Assembly: GCA_902764415.1 (NCBI GenBank)
Contig: CACWVU010000003.1
Location: 3,857 to 67,856 of the forward strand
Reading direction: 5' to 3'
From: an uncultured bacterium
GTDB taxonomy: Bacteria; Verrucomicrobiota; Kiritimatiellia; RFP12; UBA1067
DNA: 64,000 nucleotides
The notes below the pieces were generated by a model. The model did not search any database. It had not been told where the DNA came from and saw nothing but the letters and a program-made list of their open reading frames with translations. Shown here in pieces: positions 8,570-23,558 of the stretch. Both the position numbers and the translations under genes were made by a program. Position 1 is the first letter of the stretch, and the number at the start of each line of letters is the position of its first letter.

Positions 8570-10740
8570 AAAACAGAAACAGAATCGCGCCTTTCCTGTG
8601 CGCCGCCTGGGGATCACTGGCGCTCTGCGCCTCGGCCGCGGAGGCGGTGGGATACTGCGCCTACGTCGACCCGTTCATCGGAACCGCCGGCACGGGCCAT
8701 ACATTTCCCTCCGCCTGCGTTCCCTTCGGCCTCGTCCAGGCCGGGCCCGACACGGGCAACGGAGACTGGGCGCACTGCTCCGGCTACAGCTACGAAGACA
8801 AGTCCATCTTCGGCTTCTCGCAGACCCATCTCAACGGCACTGGCTGTCCCGATCTCGGCGACGTGAGGATCCTTCCCTTTGCGGCGGAGTCCGTTCCCGG
8901 GTCGGTGGCCTACGACAAGGCGAGCGAGCGCGCGAAGCCCGGCTTCTACGCCGTCACGCTTGCCGGCGGCGTCAGGGTCGAGGCCTCCGCGACCGAGCGC
9001 TGCGCCATCTACCGCATTTCCTATCCGAAGGGCGCGAAGGGCCGTCTTCTCGTCGACCCCCACTGGTGCATAACGAGGCGCCAGCCCGCCTCCGACTGCA
9101 TCCGCTCCGTCGACGTCGCGCCTGACGGCAGGGCCGGCGTCTCGGGCAAGGTCGCCGTCAACAACTGGGTCGAGCGCACCTACGCCTTCAAGATGGAGTT
9201 CTCCCGGCCGTTCTTGTCGGAGAAGGATCTCGTCTTCGACTTCGGCGAGTCGTCGGGCGAACCGCTCGTGGTGAAGGTCGCGCTCTCCGCGCTGGGCGGC
9301 GTTTCCGACGCCGCGCGCAACCTCGCCGCGGAGATACCCGGCTGGGATTTCGACCGCGTCGCAGCTGCCGCGGACGCGAAGTGGTCGAAGATGCTCTCCT
9401 GCGTGGCGGTCGAGGGCAGCGACGACCAGAAGCGCAACTTCTACACCTCCCTCTACCACCTCTTCATCCAGCCGAACAACATTGCCGATGCCGGCCACAA
9501 GCCCTTCTACTCCACGCTTTCCACCTGGGACACCTTCCGCGCGGCGCATCCGCTCTACACGATCCTCGTTCCCGAGAAGGCGGCGGAATTCGTCGACTCG
9601 ATGCTGGAGCAGGGCCGTCGCACGGGGTATCTTCCGATCTGGACCTTGTGGGGTCGGGACAACCAGTGCATGATCGGCACACATTCCATTCCCGTCATCG
9701 TCGATTGGTTCTTGAAGGATTACTTTAGCCGCAAAGAACGCAAAGAGCACAAAGACTTTGCGGATTCTGCGTCCTTTGCGGCTAAAAAACAATACTGGCT
9801 TGCCGCGTATGAGCAGATCAAGGAGACGCTCACGAAGCGGCACGAGGGGCGCTACAAGGAGCGCTGGGATCTTCTCGACCGGCACGGATACTATCCGTAC
9901 GACGTGATCAGGAACGAATCGGTCTCGCGCACGCTTGAATGCGCCTACGACGACTGGTGCGCGGCGCAGATGGCCGCGAAGCTCGGACACGAGGAGGACG
10001 CGGAGTTCTTCCGCCGCCGGTCGGAGAACTGGCGGAACGTCTTCGATCCGTCGCTCGGACTCATGCGCAGCAAGGACTCGAAAGGCAACTGGCGCGATCC
10101 GTTCGATCCTTCCGCAGTCGGCTACGGCGAAGGCTACGACTTCACCGAGGGGAACTCGTACCAGTACACCTGGCACGTCATGCAGAACCCCGACGGCCTC
10201 GTAGCGGCGATGGGCGGACGCGAGGCGTTCGTGAAGCGGCTTGACTGGCTTTTCGAGCGGCCCGAGGTGGTGAAGGGCGAGGTTTTCGACGTCACGGGGC
10301 TCATCGGGCAGTACGTCCACGGCAACGAGCCGAGCCACCACGTCATCTACTTCTACACGCTTGTCGGCGAGCGCGACAAGGCCGCGCGCAGGGTCCGCGA
10401 CGTGTTCGACAGGTTCTACCTCCCAAAGCCGGACGGGCTCTGCGGCAACGACGACTGCGGACAGATGAGCGCCTGGTACGTCTTTTCGGCGCTCGGGTTC
10501 TATCCGTTCAACCCCTGCGGCGGCACGTACGTCCTCGGCGCGCCGCAGATTCCGAAGGCGACGATAGAGCTTGCGGGCTGCAAGACCCTGACCGTCGTCG
10601 CCAACAACCTCTCCGTCGAGAACAGGTACGTGAAGTCGGTCACGTTCAACGGCAAGCCGCTCGACAAGACGATCGAGCACGCCGACCTCATGTCCGGCGG
10701 CGAGCTCGTCTTTGAAATGACGAACGCCGCGCGAAGATGA
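8566..10740 (+). CDS. GH92 family alpha-mannosidase (secreted), carrying an in-frame palindromic insert
   Basis: ATG 8566 overlaps the upstream TGA (ATGA). Signal MKNRNRIAPFLCAAWGSLALCASAAEA. GH92 hallmarks are YVDPFIGTAGTGHTFPSACVPFGLVQAGPDT, GYLPIWTLWG, GNEPSHHVIYFY and GLCGNDDCGQMSAWYVFSALGFYP. Confidence 0.92.
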   Translation: MKNRNRIAPFLCAAWGSLALCASAAEAVGYCAYVDPFIGTAGTGHTFPSACVPFGLVQAGPDTGNGDWAHCSGYSYEDKSIFGFSQTHLNGTGCPDLGDVRILPFAAESVPGSVAYDKASERAKPGFYAVTLAGGVRVEASATERCAIYRISYPKGAKGRLLVDPHWCITRRQPASDCIRSVDVAPDGRAGVSGKVAVNNWVERTYAFKMEFSRPFLSEKDLVFDFGESSGEPLVVKVALSALGGVSDAARNLAAEIPGWDFDRVAAAADAKWSKMLSCVAVEGSDDQKRNFYTSLYHLFIQPNNIADAGHKPFYSTLSTWDTFRAAHPLYTILVPEKAAEFVDSMLEQGRRTGYLPIWTLWGRDNQCMIGTHSIPVIVDWFLKDYFSRKERKEHKDFADSASFAAKKQYWLAAYEQIKETLTKRHEGRYKERWDLLDRHGYYPYDVIRNESVSRTLECAYDDWCAAQMAAKLGHEEDAEFFRRRSENWRNVFDPSLGLMRSKDSKGNWRDPFDPSAVGYGEGYDFTEGNSYQYTWHVMQNPDGLVAAMGGREAFVKRLDWLFERPEVVKGEVFDVTGLIGQYVHGNEPSHHVIYFYTLVGERDKAARRVRDVFDRFYLPKPDGLCGNDDCGQMSAWYVFSALGFYPFNPCGGTYVLGAPQIPKATIELAGCKTLTVVANNLSVENRYVKSVTFNGKPLDKTIEHADLMSGGELVFEMTNAARR
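9724..9786 (+). repeat. 63-nt palindromic mini-element inserted in frame in the GH92 CDS
   Basis: A perfect 13-bp inverted repeat: tttagccgcaaag (9724-9736) and ctttgcggctaaa (9774-9786). The interior gccgcaaagaacgcaaagagcacaaag matches the reverse complement of the TTCTTTGnG module of elements A/B at 24 of 27 nt. It starts on a codon boundary, spans 21 codons, and translates FSRKERKEHKDFADSASFAAK. Confidence 0.8.
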
Positions 10741-10755
10741 CGGCGAAGGCATGAG

Positions 10756-11799
10756 ATGAAGCGTCTGCGGGGATTTGACTACAAGCGGCCATTCTTCTAC
10801 ATGGTGACGCTGAAGCGGCTGCCGGGGCTGGCCGCCTTCTCGCAGATTTCGGACGAGGCGCCGCCGCCGGGATGGTGCCGGACGGGCCCGGCGCCGCAAA
10901 ACGCGCACGGGCGGCCGCGTTACCTTGTCGAGAACGAGATTACCAAGGCGTTTGCGCGGGTGATCCGCGAATTCGCCGCGAAGTGGTGGGGGCTGTGGCC
11001 GATAGACTGCTTTGTGATCATGCCAGATCACATTCACTTGCTCATTCGCATCAAGGATACCGGCGATCAGATGCCGCTCGGGAGCTATGTCTACCAGCTG
11101 ATGAAGGCGCTGGCAGGGGAGTATTGGCGCCTGACGGGGCAGGCGCCGCAAAACGCGGTGCAGAGGACGGGGGCCGGCGCCGCAAAACGGCTCGAACAGG
11201 GCAAGAGTGTTGCAGGGGCGGCCTCGTCCGCCCCGCCCGCCCCTGTCTTCGAGCGAGCCTGGCATGACTGGATCGTGAAGAAGGATGGCCAGCTCGCGGC
11301 CTTTACGCGCTATATTCGCGAGAACCCGGAGCGGGCTTGGCTCCGCCGCGCCAATCGCCGATATTTTGGCAAGGTGCACAAGGTCTCTTTCCTTGGCCGC
11401 GAGTGGTTCGCGTATGGCAACCTTGCGATTCTCGATCTGCCGGTGCTTGTGGCGGTGAAGGGGCACCGCGCAACGAAGCCGGGCACGCCGGAGTGGAATG
11501 CGCTTGTGGATTCTTGCGCGCGCATCGGGCCGGGCGGCGCAGGCGTGGGAACATTCATGAGCCCGCTGGAAAAGGAATGCGGCAACGCCATCGCCAAGGC
11601 GGGTGGGAAGTGGGTTGTGCTTTCGCCCGAGGGCTTCCACGAGCGGTGGCATCCGCCGCGCGAGAAGGAGCGCTTCTGCGCCGAAGGGCGCATGCTCTTC
11701 CTCTCGCTCTGGCCGCCGATGGAACGGCGGCCGCAAAACGCGGAACTTTACCAGCGCTGCCATGAGATGGGGGACGTCGTGGCAGCGGGGCTGGGGTAG
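10756..11799 (+). CDS. RAYT-like HUH tyrosine transposase homologue (IS200/IS605 TnpA superfamily, COG1943-type) with ~155-aa C-terminal extension
   Basis: HUH motif in FVIMPDHIHLLIRI. Catalytic-Tyr helix AWHDWIVKKDGQLAAFTRYIRENPERAWL. The N-terminal GFDYKRPFFYMVT is typical of the family. The C-terminal half (from ~FLGREWFAYGNL) is of unrecognised family. Confidence 0.7.
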   Translation: MKRLRGFDYKRPFFYMVTLKRLPGLAAFSQISDEAPPPGWCRTGPAPQNAHGRPRYLVENEITKAFARVIREFAAKWWGLWPIDCFVIMPDHIHLLIRIKDTGDQMPLGSYVYQLMKALAGEYWRLTGQAPQNAVQRTGAGAAKRLEQGKSVAGAASSAPPAPVFERAWHDWIVKKDGQLAAFTRYIRENPERAWLRRANRRYFGKVHKVSFLGREWFAYGNLAILDLPVLVAVKGHRATKPGTPEWNALVDSCARIGPGGAGVGTFMSPLEKECGNAIAKAGGKWVVLSPEGFHERWHPPREKERFCAEGRMLFLSLWPPMERRPQNAELYQRCHEMGDVVAAGLG

Positions 11800-11852
11800 G
11801 TGCGTTGCGTATTCTGAGCGGCGATTTTTGCGCGAGTTGAGCGCGTGGGGGG

Positions 11853-11881
11853 TTGCATTGTTCCCCGCGATTTTGTATAAT
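11853..11881 (+). promoter_or_regulatory. sigma70-like promoter for the 3,530-aa gene
   Basis: TTGCAT (11853-11858), a 17-nt spacer, then a perfect TATAAT (11876-11881). GGAGG at ~11900-11904 lies 8 nt before ATG 11913. Confidence 0.55.
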
Positions 11882-11912
11882 ACCGAACAAACAATAATGG
11901 GAGGAATGTAAC

Positions 11913-14900
11913 ATGAAGGTCTCAAAACTGCTCTCCGTTGTGGTGGCGGCCGCTTCCACTTTGTTCGTTGCACTCTCCGCTCGCGCGGAATTTACTTGCG
12001 AGCTTTCGTTCCTGCAGGCGCCGTCAACCGCGCTCGCGAACTTCCCCGTGCTTGTGCGGCTCGCGGAGGACGCGCCGACGGGCTTCTCCTATGCGGACTG
12101 CCCCACGGCGAGCTGCATCTGGTTCACGGACGCGAACGACGACGCGATTCCCTGCGACGTCGATACGTGGGACGATGAAGGCGAGTCGCTGGTCTGGGTC
12201 TCGGTCCCCTCGCTCTCCTCCTCCGCGACAATCAAGATGCACTGGGACGCCGCCGGCGCGCCGGCGGGCCTGCCCGCCTCGTCGCAGGTGTGGTCGCTCG
12301 CGAACTACGTCGGCGTCTGGCACATGAACGAGCTTGTATACGACTCGACCAAGGAAAAGCACTACACGCCCGACTCCTCCGCGAGCGGCTGGAACGCCTA
12401 CAAGGTCACCCAGTCCGATGCCGTCCCGGCGCCCGTCACGACGGCAACCGGCGTCACCGCCAATCCAACGCCGCTCACCGGCACGGCGATGAACATCGCC
12501 TACGGCGCCGGCAAGGACAACGCTGCATTCGGCGGCTTTGCTGTCCCAATGGCCCAGACTTCATCTTTCACGCTGGGCGGCTCCGGATTTACGCTTTCCG
12601 CCATCGTCAACTCCCAGCAGGTCGCCAACGACGGCCGCTGCCGTGTCATCGCCTTTGGCGCTGCCTACAACGAAATGGCGAACCTCTCCATCGGTTGCGA
12701 CAACATCTATGTCATGGGAGGAACCAACCATCTCAAGGCCAATCCCCGCGGCCAGACGGACTGGGTTTACTCGGCTGGCGTCTTCAACTCGCCCCGCTCG
12801 AAGATCTACGCCGACGGCGTCTGCCTTTCCGGTAGCAACGAAGGCAACCCCAGCCTCGCGAGCCTCTCGCTCACGAAGGGCATCGGCCTCGGCTGCTTCA
12901 TCGACGGCAAGAACACCCTTGACGGCTACCTCGATGAAGCCCGCATCCGCAATGTCGCCTCGACCGGCGAATGGGTTGCCGAGGAATACAAGACCGTGAC
13001 GACGGCGAACTATGTCTCCTTCGGCGAGGTGGAGACCGGCGTCGAGGTACTGCGCCTCGGCCCTGTCGCCGTCTCGGACGTGACGCCGACGAACGCGGTC
13101 GTCACGGGCGAGCTGCGCACGCTCGGCGAAGGCGCGACCTCGGCCGACGTCTGGCTCGTCTATACGGACGGCGGCGCCACGACGAACCGCATCGCCCTCG
13201 GGCCGAAGAGCGGCGAACCCTCTGCGCTCTCGGTCACGCTCGAGAACCTCGCCGAGAAGACGACCTACACCTGCTGGTTCACCGCGACGAACAACCTCTC
13301 GGCCGGCGCGGACTCCGCCACGGCGTCGTTCAAGACGAAGCGGATTCCGACTGGAACCGGCATCTACGAGTGCGAGCTTTCCTTCCCCTCCGCGCCCGCG
13401 ACGCCCCTTGAGAACTTCCCCGTCCTCGTGCGTCTTGCCAACGACGCGCCCGAGGGCTTCCTCTACGAGGACTGCCCGACCGCCGCGCACCTCTGGTTCA
13501 CGGACGGATACGATACCGTCCTTCCCTTCGAGGCAGACACGTGGAACACGGCGGGTGAATCGCTCGTCTGGGTTTCGGTGCCGTCCTTCTCGTCGGCGAC
13601 GAAGATCACGATGCACTGGTCGAGCGACGCGGACAGCGTCGAGGATTCGCCCGACGCGCGCGAGGTGTGGACGCGCGCCGGCTACAACGCCGTCTGGCAC
13701 TTTAGCGGCAGCGCGGCGGAGTCCGTGAACGGGCTCAACGCCAGTGTCACAAAGGGCTCACCGACCTACGATGGCAACGCATCCTATCCCGGCCCGCTCG
13801 GCAAGACGCTCTGGCTCGCCAACAACTCCGCGCTCGGCTATGCTGTCGATCCCGCCTGGACGACGCTCGGCGCGAACGCAAGTCTGACCATCTCGTGCCT
13901 GGCGCGGCCAGTCACCGCAAGCCTCGGCGGCTACGCCCGCATGGTCTGCTGCCAGACCTCCTGGGAAGTCAAGCACGGCTACACGTTCGCGGTCCACAGT
14001 CCTATCAGTAAGATCACGCTTGGCTCGTCTGATTCGAGCGAACTCGCGCTGAACAGCGGCACCGGCAATTGGTCCGGCTGGCCCTCCACCGACTGGGTTC
14101 ATCTTACGGCAAGATACGACAACACCGCCGGCGCCATCTTCAAGGACGGCCAGACGGCGATAAGCGGCGCGATCAAGACGCTCGCCACGCCGGAGGGCGT
14201 GCTCTACCTCGGTGCGAACGGCGACGGCAACCAGCGGTTCTGGGTCGGCGGCCTCGACGAAATCCGCATCCGCGCGGCGGCTTCCTCGGACGACTGGGTC
14301 GCGGCGGAATACGCGACGATGGCGACGGCGAACTATGTTTCCTTCGGCGACGTGGAGGAAGCCGCCGCCGGCGTTTCGCTCGAGTTCGGAACGCCGTCCG
14401 TTTCGTCCGTCTCGGCGACGGGCGCGATCATTTCGGCGCGCCTCAAGAGCCTCGGCGAGAACGCGACGTCCGCAAATCTCTGGGTTGTCGTTTCCGGCTT
14501 CGGCCAGACGCGCACCTATCCGCTTGTTCCGGCGACAGGGCCGAAGGTCGTCGAGGCGACGCTTTCGGGCCTCCAGCCCGGCGCGGACTGGACCGCCTAC
14601 CTGACGGCGACGAACAACGCCTCGCCCGCCGTTGGGACGAATTCCGCCGCCGTCGTCTTCTCGACGGATTCCGACGCCGGCGGCCTCGGTGGGGTCGGCC
14701 TCTATCAGGCGGTCACGACCAGCAGCGCGATTCCCGCCGACGCCGCGGCGAACTGGGATATTGCCGCGTCCGGCATCGTTACGCTCGGCCCGCTCGCCAT
14801 GCGCTGCGCCCTGAGCTCAGGAACGCACCAGTGGCAGGCGACGGACGGCTCCAGCTACCAATGGAGCAACAACACGGGCTTCGGCTATGCGGGCTGCATG

Positions 14901-17900
14901 TATATGGAGGCCGGCAAGGACTACTACTTCGGCGGCGCGATCGACGACGCGGGCTGCGTGTGGGTCGATGATGGCGTTGCTGGCTGGGATGCAAAGCGCA
15001 CCGCCTCGCAGCTCGGCGGCTACCAAAGTTGGAACAAGGCAGGCCCCTATACCGTAGCCAAGACCGGCTTCCGCCGCGTGGTCTTCTCCTGCTGGAACGG
15101 TGGCGGCGGCGCCGGCGCGGAATCCGGCGGTTCAGTCACCAGCGAACAGGCGGCGCTCCGCTACGCGGCAGTCGCGAACGGCGCGGCCGCGCCAGGCAAG
15201 GACGACGCCTCCTGGCTTCCCGCGGTCGATCCGGGCGACGGCTCGCTCTTCCGCCTCAGCGTCGGTGTGCTCCGCGGGGTCTCCGTTCTTTCGGCGGTGC
15301 GCGACGGCACGCTCCTCTCCGCACGGGTCGCCGTGGACGCGGCGGCTCCCGGTGAAATAAGCAAGCTCAGGTATGTCTTCGGCGCGACGCACGGCGGGTT
15401 CAACCCTGCGGACTGGGAGGGCGGCTCGCTCGTCGTGTCGTCGCTCCCGGCGACGGCGGCGACGAACGACTACATCGTCGGCATCGCGGCGGACACGCGC
15501 TACGTGCGCTTCTACATCGACGACGACGGCGCGATCGGCTGGTCGGCCACGATTTCGCTCGACTGGGCCGGCGAAACGACGATAGCGGACGACTTCCTCT
15601 TCATCGGGGACCCCGAAGTCCTGTCCGTAGGCGCCGACAAGGCGACCGTTTCGGCGGTTCTCAACGCGCCCGGCGACGGCGCGACGGCGGCCCAGGCCTG
15701 GTTTGTCGTCACCGGCGGCGGCGAGACTTTCACCGTTCCGGCCGGCACGGCCACATCGCGGACGAACCTCACGGTTGAAGTTACCGGTCTTGTGCCAGAG
15801 ACGGAATATTCAATCTGGTGCACTGCGACGAACAACGCCGCCGAGCCCGCCGGCGCCGATACCCCGGCCGCGACCTTCACGACCGGCCCCAAGTTTTCCG
15901 GCTGGACGCCGGGGCAGACCGCGTTCAAGCAGAACGGAAAGTCGTTCTCCGCGACAGTCCCGATTCTCAACCTCGGCGTCGGCACGACGACCCTCTACCT
16001 GATGACGGGACCGGGCAACGGCAACGTCCCGAACATTTCGGCGACTAAGGTCGTGACGGGAACCGGTGAGCAGACGATTACCGCCGACTTCTCCGCCCTG
16101 CCGTGGGGCACGAAGTACTACTACGGGCTCATGATGGTGAGCGGGACGGCCGAGGAGGCCGTCACCAACGGTCCCTTCACCGCCAGCGGAGAGATCTTCA
16201 GCAACAAATCCTTCGAGCTCCAGGACAACTCGACCTACACATGGGTCGGCGGGGCGACGGGCGTCTGGAACGACGCCGGCAACTGGGAGCGGACTGCGGC
16301 GGGGTCGAACGCCACCACGCTCTACGCCGGCTATCCGGTCTACGGCTCGACGGCGGTCTTCGCGACAAATGTCCAGGTGACCGTGACCATTCCCGCAACG
16401 GAGGGAACGACGACGGTCTCCGGCGGCGTTCCGTCCTGGTCGGTCTCGAATGTTAACCTGACCAATATGGATGCGCCGCTTGTCTTCACACCTGGGCCGC
16501 AGGGCCAGACGAGCATCTTCTACATCGTCGGAAGCATCGTCGCGAGCAGGACATCGAACCGGCTTGTCTTTGACAACTGCCTGTGCCAGCTCCCCAAGCT
16601 CCAGGACACAGGCGCAAACGCCTACAATGCCGAGAACGGCGGAAACCTCGTCGTCACCATTACGGGCGGGTCAGAGGCGTCGTTTAGTTCCATTGAGCCG
16701 AACTATCCGGGCGTCAAGCTCCGCATCGAGGACGGATCGCTCGTGAAATCCGGGACTATTTGCGGCGGCTCCGGCAACACGTCTTATCCGGCGGTGATCG
16801 AAATCGAGGACGCGGAGCTGCGCTCGACGGGGTATATCCAGCCTGACTATCGGGGGATTGGCGGTACGGTCTTCCGGTTCCTCGGCCGCAACCCGAAGCT
16901 TCTGTCCAGCTACTACGCGACCAAGAACTCCGACACCCCGTCCGCCTTCGAGTTTGTCGTGCCGGCCGGTGGCTACTTTACGCCGCCGCTCCACTTCTAC
17001 GGCGACAGCATCCTCGCGTCCGGCGGAAGCAAGGCGATTCTGCTACGCGTCTCCGCCGATTCGCCCGCGCTGGCGACGGGTGTCGGGACGACGACCCGAT
17101 TTGTGAATGCGAAGATCGCGGCCGGCTCCTCCACCGCGCGTGTGGACTTCGACCTGCCTACCGGCGTGACGACGTCAACCTACACGGACGCAAACGGCAA
17201 CGCCGACGGCTATGTCGTCACGATTCCGGCCGGCGACGGCCCGGCGCTTTCGGATGTCGCGCTCGCCTACGCGGGCAACGGCAGCTTCGACGTGGCGGGG
17301 TCGGTTGACCCAGGTTCCGCAGGCAGCGCCACCGTGAAGGTCTATCTGGCGGAAGGGGAGGGCGATTTCGCCGCGGCCGCGACGACGAACGTCACCGCCG
17401 CGGGCGCCTTCCGTCTGCGGGTTTCCGGGCTGACGGACGGAACGGCGTATCGCTGGTATGCCGAGGCCGTTTCCGCGTCGGGCAGCCACGCGACCGAACC
17501 TGAAAGCGTCACCTTCCAGTCCGGCATCGCGAGCGTTTCCGCCGCGACGGTGGAGCCGCATCCCGTCTTGAACGGCGATACGGTCTACACGTTCACCGAT
17601 TCGACCGCCCCCGGCTCAATTACTTTCTCGCAGGGCGGCCTCGTCGAAGTCCTCGTCGTCGGTGGCGGCGGCGCGGGCGGCAACAGCGCCGGCGGCGGCG
17701 GCGGCGGCGGCGCGTTCCTCCATCGCCGTGCCTTCGTTCCCGCCGGAACGTATGCGGTCACCGTCGGCAAGGGCGGCTACAACGCGACGGTAGCCAACAA
17801 CGTTTTGCCGGTCGATGCGGAATCCTCCGCGCTCGGCGCTCTCTTCGTCGCGGCCGGCGGTGGCGCGGGCGGATGCTGGGATATCCCGAGCGGCACGTCG

Positions 17901-20900
17901 CTCGGCGGCAGCGCCGGCGGCAACAGCGACAAGGTTGGAACGCCCACCACCTCCGGCATGTATCCCTTCGGACACGATGGCGGCGTGGTGCCGGTCTTCG
18001 GCAATAAATTTTTCGCGGCCGGCGGCGGCGGCGCGGGCGGCGTCGGCGGCGACGGGCGCATCTGGAACAATGTCTACATTGGCGGCTATGGCGGCGACGG
18101 CGTTGCCTGCGACATCACCGGCGAGAGCGTCGTCTACGCGGCTGGCGGCGGCGGTGGCGCGGGTACGGCGGGCTTTATCAGCGGCGCCGCGGGGCTTGGC
18201 GGTGTTCCCGGCTGCGGCCCTGCGGAACAGGTGCGCGTGCAGGATGCGCCCGCCAACACCGGCGCGGGCGGCGGCGGCGGCAACTTTGGCTCCAACTACT
18301 TGAAGCAGGGCGGTGCGGGCGGCAGCGGCATCGTCGTGGTGCGCGTCCTGAGCGGCGCGGACGACGGCACGGATGCGCTCGACGTGAAGACGCTCACGGC
18401 GGATGTCGTCGGCGATTCCGCGACGATCTCGGGCTCGCTCCTCAATCTCGGCGCGGGCGCGACGTCCGCGAACGTGTGGCTGGTCGTGACGGGCGGCGGC
18501 GAGACGCGGAGCATCGACCTCGGCACGACGAATGCCGTCCCTGCGGCTTTCACCTATACGGTCGAGGGGCTTGACTACGGCACGGCATATACGTTCTACT
18601 TCACGGCGACGAACAACTTCGGCGTCGGCGCGGGCGAGGCGTCAGGCGCGGCTTCGGCGGCGACGCCCGGTAACGAACTCTACTATTCGGAAATCTCCTT
18701 CCCGACCGCGCCGGCGACGCCGCTCGAGAACTTCCCGGTGCTTTTGCGGATTTCCTCCACGTCGCCGGTTGGCTTCTCCTACGCGAACTGCCCGACGGCG
18801 GACAAGCTCTGGGTTCTCGACGACACCGGCGCAGTGCTGCCGTTCGAGGTCGATACCTGGAACCCCGAGGGCGAATCGCTCCTCTGGGTCTCGGTGCCTA
18901 ACTTCTCCGCTGACACGACGCTCACGCTGCAGTGGGCCGTCGACGGGCACTCGCGTCCGGCAGTCCCGGCGGCCACGGAAGTCTGGTCGCGCGCGAACTA
19001 CGTTGGCGTCTGGCACATGAACGAGCTCCTTACGGACGGCACCGGCACCTATACGCCGGATGCCACCGTTAACGGCTGGAAGGCCTACAAGGCGAACGAG
19101 GCCGACGCCTTCCCGCTTGCGGACACAGTATCGTCCTACGCCGCCTCCACGCCGCCGACGGGCCGCGCGATGATCAGCCAGCTCGGCGACGACACCTTCA
19201 CGACGGGCGGCTTCCTCGTTCCGGCGTCCCTCACCTCGGAAACGACGATCGGGCCGTTCTCGATCTCCATCTTCGAGGCCTACGTCCAACCGTACAACAA
19301 CAAGTACTCCAGTCTCGTCTCCTTTGCGTCGGCCTACAACACGCTGGCCAGCATGCGGATCAAGCTGGACACCTGCTGGATCTACAACGGCGGCAGCAAC
19401 CCGTCGTTCAGCCTGACCGCCGACGGCCAGGCCTACAGCGCCTGGCGCCACCTCGGCGGCGTGTGGGACGCCGTCCCCTACGGCTACCTCAACGGCGAGG
19501 CGAGGTACCTGAACCAGAAGAACTGGGACGTCTCCAAGACGCTCTCGAACGGCATCGGCCTTGGCACGCTCACCGGCCATACGGAGACGCAGCAGGGCTA
19601 CATGGACGAAGTCCGCATCCGCAACGCCGCCTCGTCCGCCGACTGGATGGCCGCCGAATACGCCACGGTGATGGATCATGGCTACGCGGTCTTCGAGGAC
19701 GCCGAAATCGACACGGGCGCGCCGCGCGTCGGCAAGCCGGCCATCGTCGAGGCATCCGGGACGAGCGCGACGCTCGCCGCGACCGTTGTGAAGCTCGGCG
19801 ACAATGCGACGGAAGCCGACATCTGGCTCGTCCTCGAGGGCGGAACGAAAACACTGACCTATCCCGTCGGGAAGGCGACGGCGCCGCTCCAGTCCTTCAC
19901 GAACACGGTCACCGGCCTTGCCAACTCCACCGTCTACACCGCGTACTTCACGGTGACGAACAATGCCGAGCCCGCCGCCAGCTCCGACTCCAAGACGGTA
20001 TCGTTCGAGACCGAGACCTTGCCGGCCAACTGGAACACCGGCTCGTTTGCGCTCTCCGGCAGCGGGAAGTCGCTTACGACATCCATCGACGTTACCGACC
20101 TCGGCACCGGCACGACAACGCTCTATCTCATGACGGGCCCCGGTTGGAATAGCGAGAACATCGTCTCCGCAACGAGTGTCCTCACCAACACGGGCGTGCA
20201 TTCGTTTACCCTTGACTACCCGGACATGCCGTGGGGAAAATCGGTCTACGTTTCGTTCCTGCTCGTGAACGGCACGGAGCAGAACGCGATCACCAACGGC
20301 CCCTATACCGCAAACGGCCAGGCGTTCTACAACAAGTACGTCACGTTCCAGGACAACTCGACCTACACCTGGATCGGCGGCGCGGCGGGCGACTGGAACG
20401 ACCCGACCAAGTGGGAGCTGACGACGAAGGGCAGCGCTGCGGGTGAGACGCCGGCCGGCTACCCGGTTTATGGCTCGACGGCATACTTCAAGACGAACAT
20501 CGCAGTGACCGTCGCGATTCCCGCTACGGCCGGCACCTCGGTTTCGGGCGGCACGCCGTGCTGGTATGTCGGCTCGCTCAACATGAGCAACATGTCCGCG
20601 CCGCTCACGTTCGTCTCGACTTCAATCGCAGACGAATGCCGCATCCAGGCGGGCGGCATCAGCGCGGACAACGCGAACCTCGACGTCACCTTTGATGGTT
20701 GCTACTTCAACACAGGCTCGGCGCCGCACATCGGTGCCAACGCAACTGTTGACGGGCGCAATACCGTCTTGACGTTCAAGAACGGCGCGCGCGGTTATTT
20801 CAACCAGCTCTGGGTCGACAAGCCGGCCGCGAAGGTGCGCGTCCTGAGCGGGTCGCTTCTTGAAGACGGCTACCTGCTGTGCGGCACCAATGTCGCGGGC

Positions 20901-22505
20901 GACGAGAACAAGCCAGTGCTTGAAGTCGAGGACGCTGAATACATAAACAGGCAGAATTCGGTTGCCTTTGACTACAACAACACTACCAACGGCTTGCTGA
21001 TCCGCCTTCTTGGTAGGCACCCGCGCGTCTCATCCCCGAACTTCAATCTGGCCCGTGCCTCCGGCGGCTGCATCGAGTTTGTCGTCCCGGCGGGTGGCTA
21101 TGCGGATGCGCCAATCCATTTCCTCTCGAACGGCGAGTTCAACTCGGCCAAGAATGCGCCGATCCGGCTTAGAGTCTCGCCTGACTCGCCGGCGCTTAAG
21201 GCCGGGTTTGCCACGACGACGCGCCTTGTGGATGCGAAGCTCGTCGTCGTGTCCGAGGAGTCCGCGGCGGTTTCGTTCGAGCTGCCGTCGGGCGTGACGA
21301 CGTCGCGCCACACCAACGAGGACGGCCACGAGGAGGGCTATGACTGCTCGATTCCCGCGGGGACCGGGCCGACGCTCTCCGATGTCAGGGTCGTCGCGTG
21401 CGGCGACGCCTCCTTCACGGTCAACGGCACGGTGGCCACGCACAACGACGAGGCTGCCACCATCAGGGCCTACGTTGCCGCGGACGGTGGCGACTTCGCG
21501 GCAAAGGGCGCCGCGGTTGCCGCCGCCGGACAGTTTGCCGTCAAGGCCAAGAACCTGACGGCCGGAACCAGGTATCGCTGGTATATCGAGGCCACGACGG
21601 CCTCCGGCTCGCACTGCACCGAGGCGCAGGAGCTGACGTTCCGTCCCGGCAAGGCGTCCGTTGCGTCGGCGAGCGAGGAGCCGATTCTGGTGGGCGGCGA
21701 AAAGGTCTATGTCTTCACCAATTCCACCGAGGCCGGCTCGATCACCTTCGCGCAGGGCGGCCTCGTCGAGGTGCTGGTCATCGGCGGCGGCGGCGCGGGC
21801 GGCAACGCCATGGGCGGCGGCGGCGGCGCGGGCGCGTTCCTGCACCGCTACGACTTCATCCCGGCCGGCACCTACGAGGTGACCGTCGGCAAGGGCGGCT
21901 ACAACACCGGCAACAACCAGGGCAGCGATGCGGTTCCGGCGGAGGCCTCTTCGATCGGCGACGTCTTCGTGGCGCCGGGCGGCGGCGCGGGCGGACGCTG
22001 GGGCGCGCAGGGCAAGGTGCAGGGCGGCAGCGCCGGCGGCAACAGCGGCAACGCCAATGTTCCGGCGGTCGGCATCGGCATCTATCCGCTCGGCCGCGAC
22101 GGCGGCTCGCAGACAACCGGCAACGCGTATATCGGCGCGGGCGGCGGCGGCGCAGGCAGCGCGGGACATGACTCCCGGACATGGGGCGGCATTTACTACG
22201 GCGGGCGCGGCGGCGACGGCGTCGCCTGCGACATCACCGGCGTGAGCGTCGTCTACGCGGCCGGCGGCGGCGGCGGCGCGGGCACGGTGGGCTACATCCC
22301 CGGCTCGGCGGGACTGGGCGGCGTCCGCGGCTGCGGCAGAAGCGACACAGAAATCTTCAACGCGCCCGACAACACCGGCTCCGGCGGCGGCGGCGGCAGC
22401 TATCAGACAGGCACGTACCAAATGGGCGGCGCGGGCGGCAGCGGCATCGTCGTCATCCGTGTCAAGGAGTTCTTCCGGCCCGGTACGGTGTACTACATCC
22501 GGTAG
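11913..22505 (+). CDS. giant secreted DUF2341/LamG/Fn3-like/glycine-rich-domain protein (3,530 aa)
   Basis: Sec signal MKVSKLLSVVVAAASTLFVALSARA. Three DUF2341-type modules (..NFPVLVRL..ESLVWVSVP..) are each followed by a LamG-type jelly roll ending (G)Y(L/M)DE(A/V)RIRN..EY. Five Fn3-like units end in TATNN/TVTNN. A PA14-like stretch lies at ~14.7-15.1 kb. There are two NSTYTW(V/I)GGA.G.WND..(N/K)WE units and two glycine-rich domains. It is an uninterrupted ORF with high G/C-ending codon use. Confidence 0.9.
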   Translation: MKVSKLLSVVVAAASTLFVALSARAEFTCELSFLQAPSTALANFPVLVRLAEDAPTGFSYADCPTASCIWFTDANDDAIPCDVDTWDDEGESLVWVSVPSLSSSATIKMHWDAAGAPAGLPASSQVWSLANYVGVWHMNELVYDSTKEKHYTPDSSASGWNAYKVTQSDAVPAPVTTATGVTANPTPLTGTAMNIAYGAGKDNAAFGGFAVPMAQTSSFTLGGSGFTLSAIVNSQQVANDGRCRVIAFGAAYNEMANLSIGCDNIYVMGGTNHLKANPRGQTDWVYSAGVFNSPRSKIYADGVCLSGSNEGNPSLASLSLTKGIGLGCFIDGKNTLDGYLDEARIRNVASTGEWVAEEYKTVTTANYVSFGEVETGVEVLRLGPVAVSDVTPTNAVVTGELRTLGEGATSADVWLVYTDGGATTNRIALGPKSGEPSALSVTLENLAEKTTYTCWFTATNNLSAGADSATASFKTKRIPTGTGIYECELSFPSAPATPLENFPVLVRLANDAPEGFLYEDCPTAAHLWFTDGYDTVLPFEADTWNTAGESLVWVSVPSFSSATKITMHWSSDADSVEDSPDAREVWTRAGYNAVWHFSGSAAESVNGLNASVTKGSPTYDGNASYPGPLGKTLWLANNSALGYAVDPAWTTLGANASLTISCLARPVTASLGGYARMVCCQTSWEVKHGYTFAVHSPISKITLGSSDSSELALNSGTGNWSGWPSTDWVHLTARYDNTAGAIFKDGQTAISGAIKTLATPEGVLYLGANGDGNQRFWVGGLDEIRIRAAASSDDWVAAEYATMATANYVSFGDVEEAAAGVSLEFGTPSVSSVSATGAIISARLKSLGENATSANLWVVVSGFGQTRTYPLVPATGPKVVEATLSGLQPGADWTAYLTATNNASPAVGTNSAAVVFSTDSDAGGLGGVGLYQAVTTSSAIPADAAANWDIAASGIVTLGPLAMRCALSSGTHQWQATDGSSYQWSNNTGFGYAGCMYMEAGKDYYFGGAIDDAGCVWVDDGVAGWDAKRTASQLGGYQSWNKAGPYTVAKTGFRRVVFSCWNGGGGAGAESGGSVTSEQAALRYAAVANGAAAPGKDDASWLPAVDPGDGSLFRLSVGVLRGVSVLSAVRDGTLLSARVAVDAAAPGEISKLRYVFGATHGGFNPADWEGGSLVVSSLPATAATNDYIVGIAADTRYVRFYIDDDGAIGWSATISLDWAGETTIADDFLFIGDPEVLSVGADKATVSAVLNAPGDGATAAQAWFVVTGGGETFTVPAGTATSRTNLTVEVTGLVPETEYSIWCTATNNAAEPAGADTPAATFTTGPKFSGWTPGQTAFKQNGKSFSATVPILNLGVGTTTLYLMTGPGNGNVPNISATKVVTGTGEQTITADFSALPWGTKYYYGLMMVSGTAEEAVTNGPFTASGEIFSNKSFELQDNSTYTWVGGATGVWNDAGNWERTAAGSNATTLYAGYPVYGSTAVFATNVQVTVTIPATEGTTTVSGGVPSWSVSNVNLTNMDAPLVFTPGPQGQTSIFYIVGSIVASRTSNRLVFDNCLCQLPKLQDTGANAYNAENGGNLVVTITGGSEASFSSIEPNYPGVKLRIEDGSLVKSGTICGGSGNTSYPAVIEIEDAELRSTGYIQPDYRGIGGTVFRFLGRNPKLLSSYYATKNSDTPSAFEFVVPAGGYFTPPLHFYGDSILASGGSKAILLRVSADSPALATGVGTTTRFVNAKIAAGSSTARVDFDLPTGVTTSTYTDANGNADGYVVTIPAGDGPALSDVALAYAGNGSFDVAGSVDPGSAGSATVKVYLAEGEGDFAAAATTNVTAAGAFRLRVSGLTDGTAYRWYAEAVSASGSHATEPESVTFQSGIASVSAATVEPHPVLNGDTVYTFTDSTAPGSITFSQGGLVEVLVVGGGGAGGNSAGGGGGGGAFLHRRAFVPAGTYAVTVGKGGYNATVANNVLPVDAESSALGALFVAAGGGAGGCWDIPSGTSLGGSAGGNSDKVGTPTTSGMYPFGHDGGVVPVFGNKFFAAGGGGAGGVGGDGRIWNNVYIGGYGGDGVACDITGESVVYAAGGGGGAGTAGFISGAAGLGGVPGCGPAEQVRVQDAPANTGAGGGGGNFGSNYLKQGGAGGSGIVVVRVLSGADDGTDALDVKTLTADVVGDSATISGSLLNLGAGATSANVWLVVTGGGETRSIDLGTTNAVPAAFTYTVEGLDYGTAYTFYFTATNNFGVGAGEASGAASAATPGNELYYSEISFPTAPATPLENFPVLLRISSTSPVGFSYANCPTADKLWVLDDTGAVLPFEVDTWNPEGESLLWVSVPNFSADTTLTLQWAVDGHSRPAVPAATEVWSRANYVGVWHMNELLTDGTGTYTPDATVNGWKAYKANEADAFPLADTVSSYAASTPPTGRAMISQLGDDTFTTGGFLVPASLTSETTIGPFSISIFEAYVQPYNNKYSSLVSFASAYNTLASMRIKLDTCWIYNGGSNPSFSLTADGQAYSAWRHLGGVWDAVPYGYLNGEARYLNQKNWDVSKTLSNGIGLGTLTGHTETQQGYMDEVRIRNAASSADWMAAEYATVMDHGYAVFEDAEIDTGAPRVGKPAIVEASGTSATLAATVVKLGDNATEADIWLVLEGGTKTLTYPVGKATAPLQSFTNTVTGLANSTVYTAYFTVTNNAEPAASSDSKTVSFETETLPANWNTGSFALSGSGKSLTTSIDVTDLGTGTTTLYLMTGPGWNSENIVSATSVLTNTGVHSFTLDYPDMPWGKSVYVSFLLVNGTEQNAITNGPYTANGQAFYNKYVTFQDNSTYTWIGGAAGDWNDPTKWELTTKGSAAGETPAGYPVYGSTAYFKTNIAVTVAIPATAGTSVSGGTPCWYVGSLNMSNMSAPLTFVSTSIADECRIQAGGISADNANLDVTFDGCYFNTGSAPHIGANATVDGRNTVLTFKNGARGYFNQLWVDKPAAKVRVLSGSLLEDGYLLCGTNVAGDENKPVLEVEDAEYINRQNSVAFDYNNTTNGLLIRLLGRHPRVSSPNFNLARASGGCIEFVVPAGGYADAPIHFLSNGEFNSAKNAPIRLRVSPDSPALKAGFATTTRLVDAKLVVVSEESAAVSFELPSGVTTSRHTNEDGHEEGYDCSIPAGTGPTLSDVRVVACGDASFTVNGTVATHNDEAATIRAYVAADGGDFAAKGAAVAAAGQFAVKAKNLTAGTRYRWYIEATTASGSHCTEAQELTFRPGKASVASASEEPILVGGEKVYVFTNSTEAGSITFAQGGLVEVLVIGGGGAGGNAMGGGGGAGAFLHRYDFIPAGTYEVTVGKGGYNTGNNQGSDAVPAEASSIGDVFVAPGGGAGGRWGAQGKVQGGSAGGNSGNANVPAVGIGIYPLGRDGGSQTTGNAYIGAGGGGAGSAGHDSRTWGGIYYGGRGGDGVACDITGVSVVYAAGGGGGAGTVGYIPGSAGLGGVRGCGRSDTEIFNAPDNTGSGGGGGSYQTGTYQMGGAGGSGIVVIRVKEFFRPGTVYYIR
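11988..13000 (+). other. DUF2341 + LamG module 1 of the 3,530-aa protein
   Basis: FTCELSFLQAPSTALANFPVLVRLAEDAP..GESLVWVSVPSL..IKMHW, then GVWHMNE...GYLDEARIRNVASTGEWVAEEYKTV. Confidence 0.7.
13365..14322 (+). other. DUF2341 + LamG module 2
   Basis: YECELSFPSAPATPLENFPVLVRLANDAP..GESLVWVSVPSF..ITMHW, then AVWHFSG...GGLDEIRIRAAASSDDWVAAEYATM. Confidence 0.7.
17634..18355 (+). other. glycine-rich domain 1 (phage-tail-fibre-like 'glycine-rich domain' family)
   Basis: GGLVEVLVVGGGGAGGNSAGGGGGGGAFLHRRAFVPAGTYAVTVGKGGYN ... AAGGGGGAG ... NTGAGGGGGN ... GGAGGSGIVVVRV. Confidence 0.65.
18679..19670 (+). other. DUF2341 + LamG module 3
   Basis: YYSEISFPTAPATPLENFPVLLRISSTSP..GESLLWVSVPNF..LTLQW, then GVWHMNE...GYMDEVRIRNAASSADWMAAEYATV. 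Confidence 0.7.
21754..22470 (+). other. glycine-rich domain 2 (paralogue of 17634-18355)
   Basis: GGLVEVLVIGGGGAGGNAMGGGGGAGAFLHRYDFIPAGTYEVTVGKGGYN ... NTGSGGGGGS ... GGAGGSGIVVIRV. It is collinear with domain 1. Confidence 0.65.
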
Positions 22506-22522
22506 GCGGGCATACGCCCGCC
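22505..22522 (+). terminator. GC-rich stem-loop immediately after the stop of the 3,530-aa gene (possible terminator, no U-tract)
   Basis: ggcgggc-atac-gcccgcc gives a 7-bp stem and 4-nt loop, overlapping the last base of TAG 22503-22505. No T-run follows. Confidence 0.3.
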
Positions 22523-22608
22523 GAAGGGACGGAAGGGACAAAAGGGACAGAAGGGACAAACATGACCAGCCAGTCGCTTAAGTCGCTTTTGTCGCTCTCG
22601 TCCCTTGA
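22522..22608. repeat. hairpin built from two phased 9-mer arrays (4 x nnAAGGGAC / 4 x GTCsCTnnn)
   Basis: The left array is cgaagggac ggaagggac aaaagggac agaagggac (22522-22557). A 15-nt loop follows. The right array is gtcgcttaa gtcgctttt gtcgctctc gtcccttga (22573-22608). The arms are imperfect reverse complements, with a recurrent central mismatch per unit. Confidence 0.8.
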
Positions 22609-22687
22609 ATGGGGCTCAAATGGGACCAAAGGGACAAACATGACCAGCCAGTCGCTTAAGTCGCTTTTGTCGCTCTCGTCCCTTGAA
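22551..22687. repeat. two exact 59-nt direct repeats (22551-22609 and 22629-22687, period 78 nt)
   Basis: aagggacaaacatgaccagccagtcgcttaagtcgcttttgtcgctctcgtcccttgaa occurs twice, identical by eye. The second copy ends 10 nt before ATG 22698. Confidence 0.85.
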
Positions 22688-22697
22688 GAGGTCCCCA

Positions 22698-23384
22698 ATG
22701 GCTGAAGTTCCGAAGATCGTTTTGCCGCATGGCGGCTACCGCAACCTCATCGTCTACCGCAAGAGCGACGTGATCTACCAGGGCACCGTCGCATTCTGCC
22801 GCCGCTTTCTGCCGGCGCGCGGCGACCGCACGGTCGACCAGATGACGCAGGCCGCGCGCTCCTGCAAGCAGAACATCGCCGAAGGGTCGGCGGCGAGCGG
22901 CACCTCGAAGGAGACGGAGATTAAGCTGACCAACGTCGCCCGGGCGACGCTTGACGAACTCCTCGAAGACTATCTCGACTACCTGAAGTCACATGGCGCC
23001 GGGGAATGGCCGGCCGCCAGCGAGAAGAAGGCGGCGGCGCGCGACTTCGCGAAGAGCCACGCCGACTGGGACGACTGGAAGCCGTTCTTCGAGTCGCGCT
23101 CGGCGGAGACGCTCTGCAATCTGATGATCGTCGTCATCCAGCAGACGAAATACCTGCTCGACAAGATGATTGCCGCGCAGGAAGAGGACTTCAAGCTGCA
23201 TGGCGGCGTCCGCGAGCGGATGCACGCGGCGCGAACCGCCGCGCGCGGCGAAGACTGGGACGGGGCGATCTATTCGCGGCTTGACGGCGCGGCGTCCGCC
23301 GAAGAGCTCGCCGCTCGCGCCGCCGAGATGCGCGAGCGCATATCCAAGGCAGTCTGGGGCATAAAGCAGCGGAAGGGCTGGTAG
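22698..23384 (+). CDS. four-helix-bundle protein ('23S rRNA intervening-sequence protein' family) with C-terminal suffix domain
   Basis: YRNLIVYRKSDVIYQGTVAFCRRF...QMTQAARSCKQNIAEGSAASGTSKETEIKLTNVARATLDELLEDYLDYL is the typical core of this family. ATG 22698 is preferred over the TTG at 22683, which lies inside the repeat. Confidence 0.8.
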   Translation: MAEVPKIVLPHGGYRNLIVYRKSDVIYQGTVAFCRRFLPARGDRTVDQMTQAARSCKQNIAEGSAASGTSKETEIKLTNVARATLDELLEDYLDYLKSHGAGEWPAASEKKAAARDFAKSHADWDDWKPFFESRSAETLCNLMIVVIQQTKYLLDKMIAAQEEDFKLHGGVRERMHAARTAARGEDWDGAIYSRLDGAASAEELAARAAEMRERISKAVWGIKQRKGW

Positions 23385-23386
23385 GC

Positions 23387-23558
23387 CAAAGGGACGGAAG
23401 GGACAGAAGGGACGAAAGGGACGGGCCAGGGCTTGGCGGTGCCTGGGCCGGGCTGCCCAGGGCTTGCGGGCCAGGGCCGGGCTGGCCAAGGCTTTGCAGG
23501 GCCGGGCTTGGCGGGCTTGGCGGTCGCTTAGGTCCCTTCTGTCGCTTTTGTCCCTTTT
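23387..23558. repeat. long hairpin: 4 x nnAAGGGAC array + ~100-nt GC-rich degenerate repeat loop + 4 x GTCsCTTnn array
   Basis: The left array is caaagggac ggaagggac agaagggac gaaagggac (23387-23422). The middle is made of gggcc(a/g)gggct(t/g)gc-type units. The right array is gtcgcttag gtcccttct gtcgctttt gtccctttt (23523-23558). It begins 2 nt after stop TAG 23382-23384. Confidence 0.8.

Follow-up and report, generated by a model that had tools for sequence, protein, structure and literature searches.

A three-unit giant protein of uncultured Kiritimatiellia with two phage-type glycine-rich domains: a candidate secreted adhesin

What use would a bacterium have for a single secreted chain of 3,530 residues in which lectin-like modules are combined, twice over, with a glycine-rich domain shared with phage proteins? 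The question is raised by one gene, at 11913..22505 (stop codon included) on the forward strand of a 64,000-nucleotide stretch of DNA (the window, to which all coordinates refer) from an uncultured Kiritimatiellia bacterium (assembly GCA_902764415.1, contig CACWVU010000003.1, positions 3,857 to 67,856). The initial annotation of this stretch had proposed a giant open reading frame (ORF) with two collinear blocks, each ending in a glycine-rich domain, and this was borne out by translation, BLASTN and self-BLASTP. A fairly likely reading, in our view, is that of an adhesin or glycan-capture protein of cattle-rumen Kiritimatiellia that leaves the cell by the Sec route, binds glycans or surfaces multivalently and was shaped by module shuffling among paralogues; surface export, ligand binding and the evolutionary route are what we infer from sequence.

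A single gene with two kinds of internal repeat

Translation of 11913-22505 gave one uninterrupted ORF of 3,530 residues, rich in Gly, Ala, Thr and Ser, with a ribosome-binding site (GGAGG) about 8 nucleotides 5' of the ATG. The N-terminus reads as a Sec-type signal peptide (residues 1-25, MKVSKLLSVVVAAASTLFVALSARA followed by EF; 11913..11987) with predicted cleavage between LSARA and EF, and a near-identical leader is present in many free-standing paralogues. A complete orthologue of 3,523 residues, 93% identical end to end, was found in the nearest genome, rumen bin RUG10640 (L003). A further related genome (L002) holds an orthologue annotated at 3,502 residues, 93% identical over its readable part, the first 2,511 residues. 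Moreover, a 12,150-nucleotide DNA contig from a separate run (X1) equals 10500-22580 without any difference, and bovine gut metagenomes contain the sequence of the gene. Three rumen metatranscriptome runs yielded contigs that span much of the gene (95-99% identity), which suggests that it is transcribed in the rumen. The ORF is real.

A false joining of separate paralogous genes into one ORF was considered, as the multi-copy family to which they belong breaks many assemblies and many of the matches are fragments on contigs of 1-5 kb. However, the internal repeats are just 67-68% identical in nucleotides, too low for mis-joining. The three-unit ORF is also complete in the independent L003 assembly, with L002 in agreement as far as it can be read, and the contig from the separate run reproduces the region exactly. 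Because of these orthologues and this contig, together with the metatranscriptome contigs, an assembly artefact is so improbable that we treat it as excluded. As a separate observation, apparent joints in the read layout over the gene were anchored by 20-26 nucleotides within glycine-codon repeats and are regarded as cross-matches, not rearrangements.

Self-BLASTP in 200-residue tiles aligned residues 1231-2153 with residues 2606-3525 in an unbroken chain (tiles 35-61% identical, E 1e-19 to 4e-52; about 50% amino acid identity between the blocks overall). Each block runs through an Fn3 domain, an Ig-like domain, a central domain, two further Ig-like domains and a glycine-rich domain (block 1, 15603..18371; block 2, 19728..22487). 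The repeat thus exists as first described, but with a length of about 2.77 kb in nucleotides (approximately 15603-18371 versus 19728-22487) rather than 2.45 kb, because the Fn3 domain in front also belongs to it. By BLASTN, 17035-18337 aligned with 21160-22453 (68.4% identity, E 1.6e-125) and 15970-16480 with 20098-20605 (66.9% identity). The peptide motifs that had been quoted for the two blocks were all found in both. Likewise, the nucleotide stretch cited as near-identical is exact over its 20-mer CAGGACAACTCGACCTACAC, which occurs precisely twice, at 16221 and 20349, with a chance expectation of none.

Self-BLASTP also revealed a second repeat that had gone unmentioned: a DUF2341-LamG-Fn3 unit occurs three times, at residues 27-480, 485-940 and 2257-2704. 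The first copy, unit A1 (residues 26-480, 11988..13352), was delimited from Pfam, with LamG as Laminin_G_3, and from a paralogue, P0005. Units A2 (residues 485-940, 13365..14732) and A3 (residues 2257-2704, 18681..20024) follow from self-BLASTP, A2 matching both A1 and A3, and A3 being 50% identical to A1 over 169 residues (E 7e-51). An Fn3-like linker domain (residues ~2160-2240, 18390..18632) precedes A3 and is similar in self-BLASTP to residues 388-500, 838-902 and 1242-1308.

The DUF2341, LamG and glycine-rich assignments of the initial annotation all lie above the Pfam cut-offs. Gly_rich_2 (PF21722) scored 113 bits (E 2.8e-32, two stretches; cut-off 24.3 bits), its best stretch, residues 1903-2145, spanning positions 6-225 of the 226 in the profile. 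Laminin_G_3 (PF13385) scored 42.8 bits in three stretches (cut-off 27.6 bits), the best of them at residues 689-797 in unit A2, and reached E 1e-16 in homologues. DUF2341 (PF10102) scored 34.2 bits for the whole protein (cut-off 23.4), with no single copy passing alone; segment A1 by itself gave 20.7 bits (E 5.8e-4) for DUF2341 and E 4.9e-6 for Laminin_G_3. Eight of 19 homologues had a DUF2341 match (best E 1.3e-7). The Pfam fn3 family scored 42.3 bits. Against NCBIfam the whole protein had no match at E<=0.01, and sequence and profile searches of the PDB returned fibronectin, a LamG-like match in an arabinanase and low-complexity artefacts, apart from the tail-fibre match described below.

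The segment between A2 and block 1, a beta-rich insert (residues 945-1232, 14745..15608) otherwise present in type-2 paralogues only, had been called PA14-like. This assignment found no support: the segment had no Pfam match at E<=10, a homologue search with it gave nothing in favour, and Pfam scans of 19 homologues taken singly produced, of this kind, just one GLEYA match, at E 0.46. Its predicted local distance difference test (pLDDT) score in AlphaFold was low (~40-70), and there was no PA14 structure among the 50 PDB Foldseek matches listed. A DDxG..W.D motif in the insert resembles PA14 by eye and serves as a lead, not as a test.

Glycine-rich and central domains

Glycine-rich domain 1 (17523..18371) has a Gly_rich_2 core at residues 1903-2145 with 31% Gly, and domain 2 lies at residues ~3245-3517 (21645..22463) with 33% Gly in its core. 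Both were assigned from Gly_rich_2 and from phrog_2295, with structural matches in BFVD for the first and the alignment to copy 1 for the second. In the AlphaFold model the domain consists of approximately 12 beta strands alternating with long, confidently predicted stretches to which DSSP gives no structure, a pattern that stacked extended glycine segments would give.

The connection to phages that had been proposed for this domain was upheld. The profile phrog_2295, of unknown function, matches both glycine-rich domains (E 5.8e-54), and no other part of the protein hits PHROGs. A structural search of BFVD gave about 100 matches at E<=1e-3, nearly all named glycine-rich domain-containing proteins, with E down to 5e-17, a target template modelling score (TM-score) of up to 0.77 and a root-mean-square deviation of 3.2 over 296 columns. 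They originate from uncultured tailed phages, cyanophages and prasinoviruses, as well as from a Pelagibacter phage and a haloarchaeal virus; in several of them a ConA-like, Fn3 or PA14 domain is fused to the glycine-rich part. Furthermore, the tail fibre of cyanophage Pam3 (7YFW, 7YPX) was picked up with a profile of the domain at a marginal, sub-significant E of 0.1, in an alignment of about 170 residues that takes in the terminal GG.G..GI.IV strand. The tip of that fibre is a receptor-recognising TNF-like sandwich that extends into a glycine-rich lattice and resembles S16 gp38 and ALK (PMC9608196).

Pam3 gp24, gp38 of Salmonella phage S16 and the related extracellular domain of the ALK/LTK receptors would share with the present domain a beta-sandwich with glycine-rich loops (GGGGxGG) and the terminal GG.G..GI.IV strand. 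Unlike the Pam3 and S16 tips, however, the domain here ends a very long bacterial secreted protein, without a baseplate-docking helix or a fibre chaperone gene. The glycine-rich proteins of cyanophage S-TIM4, Synechococcus phage Bellamy, Pelagibacter phage HTVC025P and Micromonas and Bathycoccus viruses have the same Pfam domain and predicted fold, but are mostly of 270-1,100 residues with one glycine-rich domain and lack DUF2341 and the central domain. Other cellular Gly_rich_2 proteins (P0056, P0095) bear a prepilin N-terminus, which fits a role of Gly_rich_2 as a tip adhesin.

The central domain, of about 340 residues, occupies residues 1426-1765 in copy 1 (16188..17207), where it starts with the motif YTWxGGxxGxWNDxxNW, and residues ~2802-3140 in copy 2 (20316..21332), as placed by alignment to copy 1. 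An AlphaFold model of residues 1325-2153 (pLDDT 89.3, predicted template modelling score 0.82) has one Ig/Fn3-like domain ahead of the central domain, two Ig-like domains behind it and, within the central domain, approximately 25 short strands predicted with high pLDDT and recurring every 30-40 residues. The sequence is itself repetitive (LVFDNCLCQL, VVTITGGSEA, KLRIEDGSLV, VIEIEDAELR), with few invariant polar residues (D, N, D and R). This combination of modelled strand pattern and sequence repeats indicates that the central domain is probably a beta-solenoid. PDB Foldseek searches with two multi-domain models were swamped, with solely tandem Ig/Fn3-type entries among the 50 matches listed, and assigned a fold neither to the central domain nor to the beta-rich insert.

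The central domain had no Pfam match at E<=10. In an exhaustive phmmer search against 1.84 billion representatives, just 23 clusters passed E<=1e-3 and 8 passed E<=1e-30; the distant relatives carry InlB B-repeat or PKD domains. Judged from these searches, it is an undescribed, narrowly distributed module of what appear to be secreted or surface proteins. The motif YTWxGGxxGxWNDxxNW was also seen in an unannotated region of Bacteroidota subtilases secreted by the type IX secretion system (T9SS). In two of these, from Algoriphagus and Cyclobacteriaceae (L004, 8264-11728; L005, 8447-11791), this region has in common with the central domain a W.GG..G.WND..KW start and a weak similarity (31%) over about 130 residues.

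Relatives and the three-unit form

Homologues of the protein are found in Kiritimatiellia metagenome bins, and its units exist in related rumen Kiritimatiellia as free-standing genes of 1,285-1,360 residues. The N-terminus of P0005 (1,311 residues) matches residues 1-461 at 86% identity. Residues 485-1763 are 56-60% identical to the type-2 paralogues P0011, P0018 and P0020 (~1,330-1,400 residues), and residues 2257-3530, that is A3 and block 2, align over the full length of the single-unit proteins P0005-P0007 at 44-47%. Identity is 50% between the two repeat blocks and 51-54% between them and the free-standing paralogue clade. Since they are as distant from each other as from these paralogues, the protein would be an old concatenation, or mosaic, of diverged units. 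The internal duplication first proposed is thus too simple a description: the two related blocks stand, but the duplication would be ancient, or a fusion of paralogues that had diverged beforehand, and not a recent tandem event.

P0005, P0006 and P0007 (1,285-1,312 residues, annotated as hypothetical proteins) have the same domain order (DUF2341, LamG, Fn3, Ig, central domain, two Ig, Gly_rich_2), the same type of signal peptide and the same kind of C-terminal tail, hydrophobic and ending in R. They differ in being one unit, not three, and are 44-54% identical to the corresponding parts, save for the N-terminus of P0005. The type-2 paralogues (P0011, P0018, P0020 and P0033 among others) share DUF2341, LamG, Fn3, the beta-rich insert, Fn3, Ig and the central domain, but end in another module (...FFFKDADGNEYADAAAIEAAGKTA..QIWYR..IIVR) instead of Ig-Ig-Gly_rich_2. 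Hence the combination of domains, which the initial annotation did not recognise as a described architecture, is not unique: LamG, Fn3 and Gly_rich_2 occur together in proteins of about 1,300 residues in other Kiritimatiellia bins, all of them uncharacterised. ConA-like and glycine-rich domains are also combined in phage proteins among the BFVD matches.

The junctions between units (...GIYECELSF and ...LYYSEISF) coincide exactly with where the mature form of the following unit would start and retain no trace of a signal peptide, which argues for recombination between repeated Fn3/DUF2341 modules and not for read-through of neighbouring genes. Other unit numbers are found as well. The syntenic slot in a third related genome (L001) holds a single-unit gene, P0007 of 1,285 residues, located after a GH130/GH78/GtaA fusion (GH, glycoside hydrolase) and an AraC-type regulator and before GFO/IDH/MocA oxidoreductases, and a two-unit form is represented by P0161 (1,776 residues). 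Most of the protein is 96-100% identical between orthologues. Divergence is patchy, with 50-70% identity in single 50-residue windows in the LamG domains and in the Ig-like region that precedes glycine-rich domain 2, and this is consistent with exchange among paralogues.

Upstream of its orthologue, L002 has an extra, frameshifted two-unit paralogue, an Avd-like gene and an ATPase gene. The extra paralogue (L002, 8806-14077) is split into ORFs of 392 and 1,358 residues, with an apparent frameshift or stop near 9984-10001. It is this paralogue's leader that the giant gene of the window bears, so that the locus has undergone either a deletion or an insertion in which one paralogue recombined with another.

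The C-terminal tail (KEFFRPGTVYYIR, 22464..22502), recognised by family comparison, consists of a turn, four to five hydrophobic residues and a terminal R or K (for example SIIVR, CIIVR, TIVVR, VYYIR); the 3,530-residue protein ends in ...PGTVYYIR. It is present in nearly all complete family members (P0001-P0041), with or without a glycine-rich domain. Outside the family no ORF of at least 200 residues in the window or in L001-L003, a small sample of ~134 kb, ended in this way. As a general sorting signal the tail was rejected, being confined to family members in the sequence examined; it looks family-specific.

Proposed role and genomic surroundings

Three paralogous units are joined head to tail in the protein, on a common plan of DUF2341 beta-sandwich, LamG/ConA-type lectin, Fn3 spacer, Ig-like domain, central domain and C-terminal module. 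Unit 1 has just the front half of this plan (DUF2341, LamG and Fn3). The remainder, from the Ig-like domain onwards, is confined to units 2 and 3, where the C-terminal module comprises two Ig-like domains and a glycine-rich domain of the predicted TNF-like/polyglycine-lattice type, which serves phages at the distal, receptor-binding end of their tail fibres. Such a chain would form a long, Fn3- and Ig-spaced stalk presenting three lectin domains and two phage-type binding tips. Polysaccharide or cell-surface ligands would then be bound with avidity, and perhaps with dual specificity. The giant form may have originated by recombination, with joins at domain boundaries, within a multi-copy paralogue family whose genes normally encode about 1,300 residues.

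The strong match of the glycine-rich domains to phage proteins, and their weak match to the Pam3 tail fibre, raise the question of whether the gene might be a prophage-derived tail fibre or receptor-binding protein, or the fibre of a tailocin or other phage-like particle, resident in the chromosome. We regard this as very improbable. The protein starts with a Sec signal peptide and matches PHROGs in its glycine-rich domains only, and the chromosomal position of the gene, with metabolic genes on either side, is conserved in three genomes. Neither the window nor the syntenic loci contained genes for phage structural proteins, baseplate, chaperone or integrase. Another reading would make the protein a multi-modular carbohydrate-active enzyme, with the central domain as a polysaccharide lyase or hydrolase of the beta-helix kind and the LamG, Ig, Fn3 and glycine-rich domains as carbohydrate-binding and spacer modules. 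The gene belongs to a conserved glycoside hydrolase cluster with an AraC-type regulator, LamG and ConA-like domains often act as carbohydrate-binding modules, and the central domain combines the strand rhythm of ~30-40 residues seen in beta-helix enzymes with invariant D, N, D and R residues. However, no catalytic family of Pfam or NCBIfam matches at any threshold, no enzyme is among the PDB matches listed except through the Ig-like domains of GH2 entries, and the InlB B-repeat and PKD domains of the distant central-domain relatives are typical of surface proteins. An enzyme is therefore unlikely, in our judgement.

It is likewise rather doubtful that the protein is a structural component of the envelope (S-layer or sheath), or a decoy for phages or other binders, instead of an adhesin for nutrient polymers. 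Its large size, secretion, Gly/Ala/Thr/Ser-rich composition and membership of a multi-copy family would suit such a part. The patchy divergence of orthologues, suggesting paralogue exchange, is likewise what exposed surface proteins show. However, nothing specific points to self-assembly, and Pfam and NCBIfam gave neither S-layer homology nor other envelope-anchoring domains.

Several points weigh against the adhesin that we favour. The ligand, the localisation and the binding itself are things we infer, and the central domain might have a catalytic instead of a structural function. The link of the glycine-rich domains to Pam3 and ALK is made of a sub-significant sequence match and matches between predicted structures, with no direct match to a fold in the PDB. 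Among the available orthologues glycine-rich domain 1 does not vary at all (100% conserved), in contrast to the hypervariable receptor-binding tips of phages. None of the known sorting signals (PEP-CTERM, T9SS Por_Secre_tail, LPXTG and others) was found with NCBIfam or Pfam, and the metatranscriptome contigs could stem from DNA carry-over.

Should the adhesin bind dietary or microbial glycan, the family would be a candidate substrate-capture system of these polysaccharide degraders; at present the protein is an uncharacterised adhesin-like protein and no new kind of system. Kiritimatiellia are abundant in the rumen, and to our knowledge their surface biology is essentially unstudied. A literature search on LamG in Kiritimatiellota or on giant proteins of rumen Kiritimatiellae found nothing relevant. 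All recognisable domains are already in Pfam, and the LamG, Fn3 and Gly_rich_2 combination is in the databases, uncharacterised. What is new is a concatenation of three units with two glycine-rich tips, a central domain that is undescribed and a C-terminal tail specific to the family.

As far as we know, structures of the TNF-like/polyglycine domain are confined to the tips of phage tail fibres and to the ALK/LTK receptors; the present protein documents a putative cellular, non-phage occurrence, twice in one bacterial secreted protein and beside lectin domains. It also provides an example of a giant gene apparently built from diverged paralogous units of about 1,300 residues joined at domain boundaries, with one-, two- and three-unit forms in related genomes. 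A bolder reading, which we consider unlikely as a whole, is that of a recombining, lineage-specific surface family of rumen and gut Kiritimatiellia, defined by the central domain and the hydrophobic-R tail. Phage-type polyglycine tips would have been recruited so that the bacterium itself could recognise polysaccharides or other cells, shuffled paralogues would yield one-, two- and three-unit genes and with them a combinatorial repertoire for binding, and the tail would perhaps serve as a new export or anchoring tag.

Every gene in the window is on the forward strand. The giant gene is accompanied by genes for an alpha-galactosidase of GH36, a GH130/rhamnosidase/GtaA fusion, a GH92 enzyme and an AraC-type regulator, a context that is conserved in three related genomes. 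Further neighbours are a melibiase-like protein, an oxidoreductase, a GDSL hydrolase, an Avd-family ORF and ORFs of 347 and 10,451 residues. The fusion (1836-7418, 1,860 residues) joins GH130 to a complete alpha-L-rhamnosidase of GH78 type and a glutaminase-A-like six-hairpin domain, and is conserved in L001 and L002. Directly upstream of the giant gene, the 347-residue ORF (10756-11799) has no Pfam match; it occupies the same place in L002 and is absent in L001. A terminator-like hairpin (11844-11869) lies between this ORF and the giant gene and would mark the end of the former, and a scan for sigma-70-type promoters 5' of the giant gene passed none.

DUF2341 proteins have been described as N-terminal appendages of the A subunits of MotA/TolQ/ExbB-type transporters and as large proteins in archaeal type IV pilus loci, often with LamG beside the DUF2341 domain that they share with the giant protein (PMC12505986, PMC4858521). 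An ExbB/TolQ/MotA neighbourhood, for which the initial annotation suggested a check beyond the window, was encountered neither among the large ORFs of the window nor in the gene tables of L001 and L002. Unlike those proteins, the giant protein has no MotA/TolQ/ExbB channel domain in Pfam, and no pilus genes accompany it in the window or the syntenic loci.

The second giant ORF (30570-61925, 10,451 residues) has a signal-peptide-like N-terminus, Laminin_G_3, bacterial TSP3 repeats and DUF2141, as seen in a domain scan that covered all but the last ~2,450 residues. It shows no BLASTP similarity to the 3,530-residue protein at E<=1e-5 and lacks the family tail.

Right after the stop codon of the giant gene, in the 22505-22700 region, a GC-rich hairpin is followed by 9-nucleotide repeat arrays (AAGGGACNN) and a 78-nucleotide tandem duplication (22539-22616 and 22617-22694, 91% identical); long hairpins (-93 kcal/mol, z -6.6) result when the repeats of this region are folded. 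The adjoining Avd-family ORF (22683-23384) matches PF05635 (23S rRNA intervening-sequence protein/Avd) at 29.3 bits, below the cut-off of 33.8. A diversity-generating retroelement was considered and rejected, as the window has no reverse transcriptase and the 3' end of the gene is not repeated downstream. The AAGGGACNN array recurs at 23380-23438, so that the Avd-family ORF is bracketed by arrays, and in L002 this ORF (97.8% nucleotide identity) stands behind a different paralogue. The array-bracketed ORF may be a repetitive extragenic palindromic (REP)-like element or a small mobile cassette.

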